From: Candidatus Omnitrophota bacterium
GTDB lineage: Bacteria; Omnitrophota; Gorgyraeia; 1-14-0-20-64-10
Reading direction: 5' to 3'
DNA: 64,000 nucleotides
Assembly (NCBI GenBank): GCA_016177405.1
Contig: JACOVG010000013.1
Coordinates: forward strand, 1,858 to 65,857
Positions 6,291-10,441 of the stretch are shown one piece after another. A program made the translations under genes and the position numbers. Numbering within the stretch: position 1 is the first letter of the stretch; each line of letters opens with the position of its first letter. A model generated the notes under the pieces. That model saw only the letters and a list, made by a program, of their open reading frames with translations. It did not search any database and was not told the DNA's origin.

Positions 6291-7987
6291 CCCCGCCGTC
6301 TAAGACCAAAGAGATCGTCAGCGAGCGGTTGACCGTTTCCGACAGCGATGCCATCAAGCAGGCGGCCCGTGGCCTGGGGCTGGTGCCGGAGCCCGCGGCG
6401 GCGGCGGCGGCCGAGCCGGCCCCGTTTGACGCCATCTCGATCCGCCTGGCCTCGCCCGAGGTGATTCGCTCCTGGTCGCGCGGCGAGGTGAAGAAGCCCG
6501 AGACGATCAACTACCGGACGCTCAAACCGGAGAAGGACGGTCTCTTCTGCGAGAAGATCTTCGGTCCCACCAAGGATTGGGAGTGCAACTGCGGTAAGTA
6601 CAAGCGGATCAAGCACAAGGGGATTGTCTGCGACCGCTGCGGGGTGGAGGTGACCCGGTCCTCGGTCCGGCGCGAAAGGCTCGCCCACATCGAGCTGGCC
6701 GCCCCGGTGAGCCACATCTGGTTTTTCAAGGCGATTCCCAGCCGCTTGGGCACGATGCTCGATATGAACCTCCGGGATCTGGAGCGGGTGATCTACTACG
6801 AGGAGTACCTGGTGATCAACCCGGGCGACACGCCGCTGCGGCAGAAGGAGCTTCTCTCCGAGGAGCGCTACCAGGAGGCCATCAAGAAATTCGGCCATAA
6901 GTTCGAGGCGGCGATGGGCGCCGAGGCCGTCCGGACGCTCCTGAAGGAGATGGACCTGGACAAGACGGTCGAGAGGCTCAAGAGGGAGATCAAGACGACC
7001 AAGGGCGACCAGGCGATGAAGAAGCTCGTGAAGACCCTCCGGGTGGTGGACACCTTCCGGAAGTCCGGCAACCGGCCGGAGTGGATGATCCTCTCGGCGG
7101 TCCCGGTGATCCCGCCGGATTTGAGGCCCTTGGTGCCGCTGGACGGCGGGCGCTTCGCCACCAGCGACTTGAACGATCTTTACCGCCGGGTCATCAACCG
7201 GAACAACCGCCTGAAGAAGCTGATGGAGCTTCGGGCTCCCGATGTGATCGTCCGCAACGAGAAACGGATGCTCCAGGAAGCGGTGGATGCCCTCTTTGAC
7301 AACGGCCGCCACGGCCGGCCGGTCCTGGGCCCGGGCAACCGGCCCTTGAAGTCGCTGGCCGACATGTTGAAGGGCAAGCAGGGCCGTTTCCGGCAGAACC
7401 TCCTGGGCAAAAGGGTCGACTATTCGGGCCGCTCGGTGATTGTCATCGGCCCGGAGCTCACGCTCAACCAGTGCGGTCTGCCCAAGAAGATGGCCCTGGA
7501 GCTTTTCGAGCCCTTCATCATCAAGAAGTTGAGGGAGCGGGGATTTGTCCACACGATCAAATCGGCCAAGCGGATGGTGGAACGGGCGCGGCTCGAGGTT
7601 TGGGACATCTTAGAGGATGTGATCCGGGACCACCCGGTTCTTCTGAACCGGGCGCCCACCCTGCACCGGCTGGGCATTCAGGCCTTTGAGCCGGTCCTGA
7701 TCGAGGGCAAGGCGATCAAGATTCACCCCTTGGTCTGCACTGCTTTCAACGCCGACTTTGACGGCGACCAGATGGCGGTGCACGTGCCGCTGTCCATCGA
7801 GGCGCAGATGGAAGCGAGGCTCCTCATGCTTTCGTCCAACAACATCTTTTCGCCCGCGCACGGATCCCCCATCACCACCCCCACCCAGGACATCGTCTTG
7901 GGCTGTCATTACCTGACCCGGGAGAAACCCGGCTCCCATGGCGCCGGCCGGAAGTTCGGCTGCCGGGAGGAGGCCCTCCTGGCGTAA
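6287..7987 (+). CDS. rpoC: RNA polymerase beta-prime, N-terminal segment (Zn finger CNCGKYK, NADFDGD), ends at in-frame TAA 7985-7987
   Basis: ATG at 6287 overlaps the rpoB stop (ATGA); homology to beta-prime residues 1-~540; the same reading frame continues after the stop. Confidence 0.85.
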
Positions 7988-7999
7988 GAGGAGAGGGAG

Positions 8000-10441
8000 G
8001 TGGCGCTGCACGCGGTGATCAAGCTCTGGGAGGCCGGAGCCTGGATCGACACGACGGTCGGCAGGATTCAGCTCAACGATCTTCTGCCCGACGACTTCGG
8101 ATTTGTGAACAAGGTGATGGATAAGGGCTCCTTGAGCGAAACCATCGTCCAGGTGCACAAGCGCTATGGGCACGAGCGGACGGTCAAGCTGCTGGACGCC
8201 GTGAAGAGGCTTGGTTTTGAGATGGCCACCTTGGGCGGCCTGTCGATCTCGGTGGACAACCTGCAGGTCCCCAAGGAAAAGGAAGCGATCATCAAGGAGG
8301 CGCGCGCCGAGGTGGCCCAGGTTCAGGATCAGTACCAGAAGGGGTTGATCACCGATGGGGAGCGCTACAACAAGGTGATCGACATCTGGACGAGGGCCAC
8401 CGACAAGGTGTCGGATCTGATCTTTAAGGAAATGGACCCCTTCAATCCGGTCTTCATGATGGCCGAATCGGGCGCCCGAGGCTCCAAGCAGCAGATTCGC
8501 CAGCTGGCCGGCATGCGGGGCCTCATGGCCAAACCCTCCGGCGAGATCATCGAGAGCCCCATCACGGCCAACTTCCGGGAAGGGCTGACGGTGCTGGAGT
8601 ACTTCATCTCCACCCACGGGGCGAGAAAGGGCTTGGCCGACACGGCCCTGAAGACCGCCGACTCGGGGTATCTCACCCGGCGTCTGGTGGACGTGGCGCA
8701 GGACGTCTCCATCGCGGAGGACGACTGCGGCACATTGAACGGCATCCTGATTGGGGCGATCATTGAGGGGGATGAGGTGGTGGTCCCCTTGAAGGAGAGG
8801 ATCGTGGGACGGGTGGCGGTGGACAACATCGCCGATGTCATCACCGACACGATCATCGTGGAGGCTGGTCAGGAGGTCGCCGAGGAGGCGGCCGTCCGGA
8901 TTGAGCAGGCCGGCATCGAAAAGATCCGGATCCGCTCGGTCCTGACCTGCGAGGCCCGGCGCGGCGTGTGCGTCCGCTGCTACGGCAGAAACCTGGCCTC
9001 CGGAAAACTGGTGGAGCTGGGCGAGGCGGTGGGGATCGTCGCCGCGCAGTCCATCGGCGAGCCGGGAACCCAGCTGACCATGCGGACCTTCCACATCGGA
9101 GGCACGGCCTCCCGGATTGTGGAGATCTCGCACATGAAGGCGAAGAACCGGGGGCTCCTCAAGTTCCACAACATCCGGGCGGTCCCCAAGGGCAAGGAGC
9201 TCGTCGTGTTAAATCGCAACGGCCAAATCTCTCTTCACGATGAGAACGGCCGTGAGTTGGAGCGGTACACCATTCCCGCGGGCGCCACCCTCAAGCACGC
9301 CGAGGGCCAGAAGGTCGCCAAGGACGAGACCTTTGTCCGGTGGGACCCTTACACCGTCCCGATCCTGACGGAGGTTTCCGGCAAGGTGCGCTACGAGGAC
9401 CTCAAGGAGGGGGTGACCGTCCGCACCGACATCGATCCGGCGACCGGCCTTCCGGACCGGATCGTGATCGAGCACCGGGGCGAGTACCACCCCCAGCTGG
9501 TGCTCGTCAACTCCAGCGGCGAGGTGCTGGCCATCTATCCCATTCCGGCCGCGGCCCACGTGGTGGTTAAAGACGGGCAGAAGGTGGAGGCCGGCGACCT
9601 GCTGGCCAAGACGCCCCGGGTCACGACGAAGACCAAGGACATCACCGGCGGTCTGCCCCGGGTGGCCGAGCTCTTCGAGGCCCGGCGGCCCAAGGACCCG
9701 GCCATCATCAGCGAGATCGACGGGGTCGTGGAGTTCGGCGATTCCAAGAAGGGCCAGCGGCGCGTCATCATCAAGAGCCCCACCGGCATGAAGCGGGAGT
9801 ACCTCATCCCGCACGGCAAGCACCTCAACGTCTACAAGGGAGACTGGGTCACGGCCGGCCAGCCCCTCATCGACGGGCCGGTAGTCCCGCAGGACATCTT
9901 GAGAATCGGCGGCGACAAGCGCCTGCAGGAATACCTGGTCAACGAAATCCAGGAGGTTTACCGTCTGCAGGGGGTGCGCATCAACGACAAGCACATCGAG
10001 GTGATCGTGCGTCAGATGCTCCGGGCCGTGCGGATCGACGATCCGGGAGACACCGAGTTCCTCGTGGGCCAGCAGGTGGACAAGTGGCGGTTCAAGGAGG
10101 AGAACGAGCGGATCATGAAGCGAAGCGGCAAGCCCTCCCAGGCGACCCAGCTCCTTTTGGGAATCACCAAGGCCTCCTTGTCCACGGAGAGCTTCATCTC
10201 GGCGGCGAGCTTCCAGGAGACCACCCGCGTTTTGACCGAGGCGGCCACCGCGGGCAAGAGGGATAACCTGCAGGGTTTGAAGGAGAACGTCATCATGGGT
10301 CACCTCATCCCGGTGGGAACCGGTTTTCCGGCGCACCGGGAGATTGAGATGGTGAAGAACGTTCTGGGGCTGATGCCGGAAAAAGAAAAGCCCTCGGCGC
10401 CTGATGAGGTACCCGCGCCGGAAGGCGGGAAGGAAGCGTAA
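8000..10441 (+). CDS. rpoC: RNA polymerase beta-prime, C-terminal segment (813 aa), restart at GTG 8000 preceded by GAGGAG SD
   Basis: Same frame as the N-terminal segment; translation continues beta-prime homology (trigger loop, bridge helix regions). Confidence 0.85.

Follow-up and report, generated by a model that had tools for sequence, protein, structure and literature searches.

A private in-frame stop codon in the rpoC gene of an Omnitrophota metagenome-assembled genome

Introduction

The largest subunit of RNA polymerase (RNAP) is divided between two genes in several lineages. In cyanobacteria and plastids the β′ (beta-prime) subunit is encoded by rpoC1 and rpoC2, and the cyanobacterial junction follows the double-psi beta-barrel (DPBB) domain, at a site common to the enzymes of jumbo phages (PMC7598289), and precedes conserved region E (PMC10895346). 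The β′-like subunits of jumbo phages are likewise reported to be split after the DPBB domain (PMC7598289), and archaea likewise carry the largest RNAP subunit as two adjacent genes, for A′ and A″. A mechanistic precedent comes from engineered E. coli β′, in which cuts placed in inter-module spacers can leave an enzyme that works (Severinov et al. 1996, J Biol Chem 271:27969, as cited in PMC7483510). Here we analyze rpoC, the gene for β′, in a 64,000-nt stretch of DNA from Candidatus Omnitrophota bacterium (assembly GCA_016177405.1, contig JACOVG010000013.1, positions 1,858 to 65,857; hereafter the window), where the reading frame is interrupted by a single TAA. The stop is private to this metagenome-assembled genome (MAG), the sequence around it is ancestral, and the gene bears no marks of adaptation or decay.

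Results

The rpoC frame lies on the forward strand at 6287–10441, opening with an ATG at 6287 that overlaps the stop codon of rpoB (ATGA, 6287–6290) and closing with a TAA at 10439–10441. Single-frame translation revealed one internal stop only, the TAA at 7985–7987 on the same strand, which stands in the context CTC CTG GCG TAA GAG GAG AGG GAG GTG GCG CTG CAC. The 5′ part (6287–7987, forward strand) is an open reading frame (ORF) of 566 codons, encoding 566 aa from 6287–7984, that ends at the internal TAA and includes the clamp and zinc-binding region together with the NADFDGD-bearing catalytic domain. Its best protein matches are Omnitrophota β′ sequences at 83–87% identity, and its database matches carry the Pfam families PF04997, PF00623 and PF04983. 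The 3′ part (8000–10441, forward strand; 813 aa from 8000–10438) closes at the normal TAA and is 80–85% identical to relatives. Both parts are collinear with β′, and only 5 residues are missing between them, such that the two ORFs together provide the collinear coverage expected of a split β′. The coding-potential frame is continuous and strong across their junction, and this rpoC copy sits in the canonical rplKAJL-rpoBC-rpsLG-fusA operon.

Residues of the window around the stop aligned with E. coli β′ 447–807 in a PDB search, and the E. coli residue opposite the stop is Tyr537, 73 residues past D464, the last Asp of NADFDGD; the E. coli segment used for this assignment is 100% identical to PDB chains numbered 458–615. 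An earlier note on this DNA had described a β′ frame with a single in-frame TAA at 7985–7987, a Shine-Dalgarno (SD) sequence followed by a GTG at 8000, fragments of 566 and 813 aa collinear with β′ on both sides, and a position equivalent to E. coli Tyr ~537, ~70 aa after NADFDGD. Translation and the ORF listing confirmed the frame and its stop, the SD proved to be of the AGGAG type, and the fragment sizes, collinearity and E. coli equivalence all stood.

We compared this site among 80 genome loci and 80 metagenome loci encoding rpoC relatives, 158 of which span it; the scans that supplied these loci did not contain the source genome itself. The aligned codon is a sense codon in 158 of 158 loci, most often Tyr (97 loci; TAC in 49, TAT in 48), followed by Phe (24), Leu (12), His (9) and Trp (6), with V, Q, C and N also occurring among the remainder. 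No stop codon was found in the 205 residues around the site in any of these 158 relatives. In all of the ~50 closest loci rpoC was matched in a single frame by one alignment, and in ~35 of these ~50 contigs the gene is complete and forms a single uninterrupted ORF, the rest being cut by a contig end. Eighteen of the relatives are at least 65% identical in the junction region, and none of them has a split. The two closest proteins, P0002 and P0003, read LLALEEREVELH uninterrupted through the site (...ALLALEEREVELH... in P0002 and ...ALLALEENEVGLH... in P0003). The TAA is one transversion away from TAY, the Tyr codons of the relatives.

Because the aligned codon is sense in every relative that spans the site, the split of rpoC is private to this assembly. 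The clade-wide inheritance that would mark a β′ of the rpoC1/rpoC2 type is absent (0 of 158); what is found instead is a single lesion, one step from the relatives’ sense codon, in a gene that is otherwise intact, as in assembly artefacts and internal-stop pseudogenes. The earlier note had raised a naturally split β′ and had named comparison with rpoC of related genomes as a check. That comparison, with a sense codon at the site in 158 of 158 loci and a Tyr TAY codon in 61%, speaks against an evolved architecture, as do a restart signal that is ancestral and a junction that is otherwise unchanged.

Signals that could restart translation are present directly downstream of the stop. The 12-nt spacer GAGGAGAGGGAG (7988–7999, forward strand) encodes Glu-Glu-Arg-Glu in frame, the same four residues as in the relative P0002, and resembles an SD, with AGGAG placed 6 nt before the GTG. 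The GTG itself (8000–8002, forward strand) is the earliest possible start after the stop, and the last G of the purine run GAGGAGAGGGAGG (7988–8000) is its first base. Predicted anti-SD pairing of the 20 nt upstream of the GTG was −9.0 kcal/mol, compared to −2.4 to −12.5 kcal/mol for real starts in the window, and the SD and start were unpaired in the predicted minimum free energy fold.

The same elements are found as coding sequence in relatives. The GAG GAG AGG GAG spacer is the ancestral in-frame Glu-Glu-Arg-Glu and the GTG is the ancestral Val codon, which in relatives is the codon of Val (sometimes Ala) in an E-E-x-E-V motif. A GTG or ATG lies in frame 4–5 codons past the site in 12 of the 18 intact close relatives, and 6 of the 18 combine a start at this place with an SD of −8 kcal/mol or better. 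Within this rpoC, 5–7% of the possible one-step nonsense changes would be followed within 15 nt by an in-frame start whose SD reaches at least −8 to −9 kcal/mol in strength. Real as they are, the SD and GTG thus provide no evidence of design, since a context of this kind arises by chance at that frequency and is shared by 6 of 18 intact relatives. As far as the sequence goes, the SD-like run and the GTG appear to be by-products of coding for an acidic Glu-Glu-x-Glu-Val stretch rather than a restart module, such that the signal could work without having been built for that purpose. We note as a caution that Glu-rich coding sequence in GC-rich genomes mimics SD and GTG restarts, as the 6 of 18 intact relatives illustrate.

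To assess substitutions, the gene was aligned with those of 14 close relatives of full length. The rpoC of the window has 16 private substitutions at otherwise invariant columns, compared to 1–21 in the relatives, and 2 of the 16 fall within ±40 residues of the junction, which is within the relatives’ range. No substitution cluster, decay or compensating change was seen near the junction in this alignment. The sequence is just what a single base change in an intact rpoC would give, and the event is either not real or very recent.

The structural position of the stop was read from an AlphaFold model of P0002, which is poor globally (predicted template modeling score 0.35) and was used for local secondary structure only, where the predicted local distance difference test (pLDDT) is ~90 for residues 510–620. 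In this model the stop site corresponds to residue 546, where a short helix (539–547) reaches its C-terminal end, at a helix-loop boundary, and the restart Val is residue 551, in a loop ahead of a beta-hairpin (557–568) and a short helix (570–578). PDB alignments of Thermus, Bacillus and actinobacterial β′ break within ~10–45 residues of the stop site, consistent with what may be lineage-specific indels or insertions. The site falls in the surface spacer that follows the catalytic domain and separates conserved regions D and E, a stretch prone to indels, and a two-piece β′ enzyme is structurally plausible.

Exact look-ups of the proteins of the window recovered L11 (MBI1953109), RpoB (MBI1953113), S12 (MBI1953114) and EF-G (MBI1953116) from the NCBI record, and no protein accession for rpoC. 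We take the skipped accession between RpoB and S12 to mean that the submitters annotated rpoC as a pseudogene. The upstream rpoB (2601–6290, forward strand) is intact and its 1229-aa product equals MBI1953113.1. The exact L7/L12 sequence encoded by rplL in the window (2188–2604) is on record only from Logan (15 contigs), unlike the NCBI entries of its neighbors; the NCBI annotation of rplL probably uses a different start.

Thirteen Logan contigs assembled per run (L161–L173) are identical to parts of the window, and none reaches 7985; they come from SRR12113383 and SRR12113419-33, with at least 11 SRA runs represented. Neither a contig nor a product covering the junction was found by exact look-ups of the N-terminal fragment, the C-terminal fragment, the C-terminal fragment with an initial Met or the full-length protein with Tyr. 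A protein search with a 132-aa junction peptide gave 3 candidates and no match, and one with a 250-aa prefix of the C-terminal fragment gave only relatives at ≤74% identity. No extension was found from Logan contigs ending in rpoB by guessed k−1 overlaps (rpoB suffixes from 4434, 4389, 4068 and 4032), nor was a Logan contig starting at 7988, as would occur with a polymorphism bubble. Control look-ups indicated that products truncated by a contig end are missing from the index of clustered proteins but present in that of encoding contigs. That Logan lacks the complete 566-aa product carries no information, with SecY and AccC of the same contig likewise absent. Ten of the Logan contigs (L164–L173, at least 9 runs) all end in two zones of rpoB, 4039–4103 and 4418–4461, and are 100% identical to the window up to there; this clustering suggests a polymorphic patch, with co-existing strains in this operon.

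A TGGCG motif lies 4 nt before the suspect base 7987, and the base equals the one preceding it. Such a context is compatible with the sequence-specific errors of Illumina sequencing (PMC3141275), and weakly suggests an error of this kind at 7987. Public assemblies frequently contain rpoC ORFs that are broken or chimeric, so artefacts in this long gene are not unusual; most of the broken ORFs seen here are frameshifts or chimeras. Among the database proteins, P0001, P0005 and P0027 have internally duplicated segments, indicating chimeric assemblies, and P0044, P0071, P0073 and P0101, on contigs of 33–362 kb, have out-of-frame tails that are apparent frameshifts. Many rpoC fragments of 250–430 aa are also present in public data on contigs up to megabase size.

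Reassignment of TAA to sense was tried and rejected, as TAA ends 21 of 62, 26 of 85 and 23 of 70 ORFs under three gene-selection schemes. Genes terminated by TAA in the window include rpoC, rpsL and rpsG, and no other in-frame TAA was noticed within its genes. A suppressor tRNA encoded in the window was likewise rejected, with no tRNA genes found within the 64 kb.

Essentially all genes of the window (1–64000) are on the forward strand, and cumulative GC skew rises throughout. A nusG-rplKAJL-rpoBC-rpsLG-fusA-S10-spc-alpha ribosomal super-operon is followed by metabolic genes. A cobalamin riboswitch aptamer at 38003–38179 on the forward strand (Rfam RF00174, scoring 58.6 bits where the gathering score is 31.5) precedes a series of co-directional genes that extends from 38239 to ~47384 and includes a 1106-aa ORF (44064–47384) whose N-terminus resembles a P-loop of the cobyrinic acid a,c-diamide synthase type. 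Just upstream of rpsU (51870–52055), ~550 nt at 51245–51792 lack coding potential and contain a pair of 47-nt inverted repeats, 96% complementary with 404 nt between the arms, as well as a 40-nt direct repeat at 95% identity and a distance of 109 nt; this segment may be a small mobile or repetitive extragenic palindromic (REP)-like element.

Discussion

The explanation we favor, and to which we give as much credence as to its negation, is that the TAA is an artefact, i.e., an error of consensus or assembly, or else that the metagenome assembly captured an unrepresentative allele; the earlier note had already named a sequencing error as an alternative. The gene would then be an ordinary rpoC of the full-length type that differs from an intact one by a single base, TAY to TAA at 7987. 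Base 7987 would not represent the living population, and the organism would make a continuous β′ with Tyr at this position. We infer that the base is wrong or unrepresentative. In favor of this are the sense codon in 158 of 158 loci, the continuous gene in the ~50 closest ones and in P0002 and P0003, the ancestral spacer and Val codon, the equally strong SD and start in 6 of 18 intact relatives, the lack of adaptation around the junction, the missing rpoC accession, the frequency of broken rpoC ORFs in public data and, weakly, the Illumina error context. Several observations weigh against this explanation. The helix-loop boundary at which the stop falls belongs to a surface spacer that is prone to indels and close to a known natural split site, and a usable SD and GTG stand just downstream of the stop. 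For a random nonsense error to meet both a restart and a permissive spacer would be a coincidence of ~1%, by our own estimate, which multiplies the ~5% frequency of an SD and GTG context by an assumed ~13% of the protein lying near a known natural split site; a coincidence of that size favors a real, viable allele. No frameshift or second interrupted gene was found among the ~65 genes and the stretches inspected in the window, such that the other assembly errors expected alongside an artefact are lacking there. The 13 per-run Logan contigs match the window at 100% over ~40 kb in total, which indicates that consensus errors are rare here. The suspected Illumina context is also common, with GGC within 10 nt at 29.5% of positions, and no perfect inverted repeat was found upstream of 7987, where the hairpin is imperfect as a DNA inverted repeat.

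A rival that we take seriously while doubting it is that the TAA is real and recent and that β′ is made in two pieces. Translation would terminate at 7985–7987 and reinitiate 12 nt on at the GTG at 8000 through the pre-existing AGGAG, to give a 566-aa fragment with the clamp and catalytic domain and an 813-aa fragment with the hairpin, the rim helices, the bridge helix, the trigger loop and the jaw. The five residues Y-E-E-R-E would be lost, and, by analogy with cyanobacterial γ and β′, we infer that the fragments could be translationally coupled and assemble with β. The gene is essential, and neither half is less conserved than its counterpart in relatives; the SD strength of −9.0 kcal/mol is inside the range of real starts in the window, and the predicted fold leaves both SD and start unpaired. 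The cut is placed where the short helix ends and the loop begins in the P0002 model (local pLDDT ~90), PDB alignments break within ~10–45 residues of it, and the window is reproduced at 100% by the 13 per-run contigs. The spacer between regions D and E is also the one divided in cyanobacteria (PMC10895346), jumbo-phage β′ homologs are reported to be split after the same DPBB domain (PMC7598289), and E. coli β′ retains activity when it is cut at natural split sites (Severinov et al. 1996, as cited in PMC7483510). The stop is, however, private to one MAG (0 of 158), no independent contig or read was found over the site, and the junction gives no sign of adaptation: the start has remained GTG, the spacer keeps the frame and no substitution cluster is present. 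Moreover, 6 of the 18 close relatives are restart-competent yet continuous, which suggests long-term selection against the split; because relatives with the same restart-competent context never carry the stop, a split here is evidently not neutral. That the A at 7987 is both genuine and dominant in a groundwater Omnitrophota population, whose β′ would have been cut very recently by one nonsense mutation, at a new site one structural element upstream of the cyanobacterial cut, and rescued at once by a fortuitous in-frame SD and GTG, is a view we can entertain only tentatively. Artefacts of this kind and fresh splits are each individually rare.

Other ways of accommodating a real TAA appear less probable. 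Full-length β′ could still be made by stop read-through or a suppressor tRNA, which we consider unlikely; the frame is perfectly continuous across the stop, and an essential gene must be expressed, which is a general argument only. Termination is efficient at UAA when a G follows, about a third of the window’s genes, rpoC included, ordinarily end in TAA, downstream structure is not significant (z = −1.49) and the 64 kb contain no tRNA gene. Nor is the stop conserved in relatives, unlike programmed recoding sites, and the combination of a conserved stop with a leaky context or stimulatory structure is not seen at this locus. It is very improbable that this copy is a fresh pseudogene whose function is supplied by a second copy or allele of rpoC, through duplication, polyploid heterozygosity or the collapse of two strains. 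The clustering of per-run contig ends in rpoB at 4039–4103 and 4418–4461 suggests some strain heterogeneity, but the copy occupies the canonical operon position and has no other lesion, the 64-kb window shows no second copy, and duplication of rpoC is, to our knowledge, very unusual in bacteria. An evolved, heritable split-gene architecture, as a new rpoC1/rpoC2-like trait of Omnitrophota, is scarcely credible: the two collinear ORFs with a usable start signal speak for it, but none of the 158 relatives shares the split, including the 18 with at least 65% junction identity and the ~50 with a continuous gene, and neither the spacer nor the start codon departs from the ancestral coding sequence.

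For annotation, the consequence is an rpoC with an internal stop. If the split were true, it would be a snapshot of the first step in the origin of split RNAP genes outside cyanobacteria, and would mean that β′ tolerates a cut and a five-residue deletion at a site unused by cyanobacteria, plastids, phages and archaea. It would also mean that fission of an essential enzyme gene can begin with one point mutation where the coding sequence already holds a ribosome-binding site and a start.

Among the closest described systems is the rpoC1/rpoC2 division of cyanobacteria and plastids, which falls in the same D–E spacer as the Omnitrophota stop. Residue 10 of S. elongatus β′2 aligns with E. coli 591, placing the cyanobacterial junction at about E. 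coli 581/582. That is ~44 E. coli residues, or 26–30 local residues, downstream of the stop and in a different structural element, so the Omnitrophota cut does not lie at the family’s site and the earlier note was right to distinguish the two. The Omnitrophota cut would put the small beta-hairpin and helix on the C-terminal piece, whereas the cyanobacterial split leaves them on the N-terminal piece. The cyanobacterial split is also ancient and phylum-wide and separates distinct genes, in contrast to one MAG with 12 nt between its ORFs and no secondary change. Jumbo-phage splits are at the cyanobacterial site, are conserved across the phage group and occur in highly diverged proteins, whereas the Omnitrophota gene is a cellular rpoC. 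The archaeal A′/A″ split is far more C-terminal, as placed by the Fig. 1 legend of PMC10895346 and by PMC7598289, and the Omnitrophota stop cannot be at the archaeal site because it is only 73 residues after NADFDGD. The engineered E. coli cuts, as PMC7483510 cites them, were made at the chloroplast and archaeal sites and not at residue 537, and their activity was established by reconstitution, not natural selection. Internal-stop pseudogenes in draft genomes and MAGs likewise have a single in-frame stop in an otherwise intact gene without a protein accession. Most broken rpoC ORFs encountered here in the databases, by comparison, are frameshifts or chimeras, whereas in the Omnitrophota case the lesion is one clean substitution and the window is otherwise free of errors.

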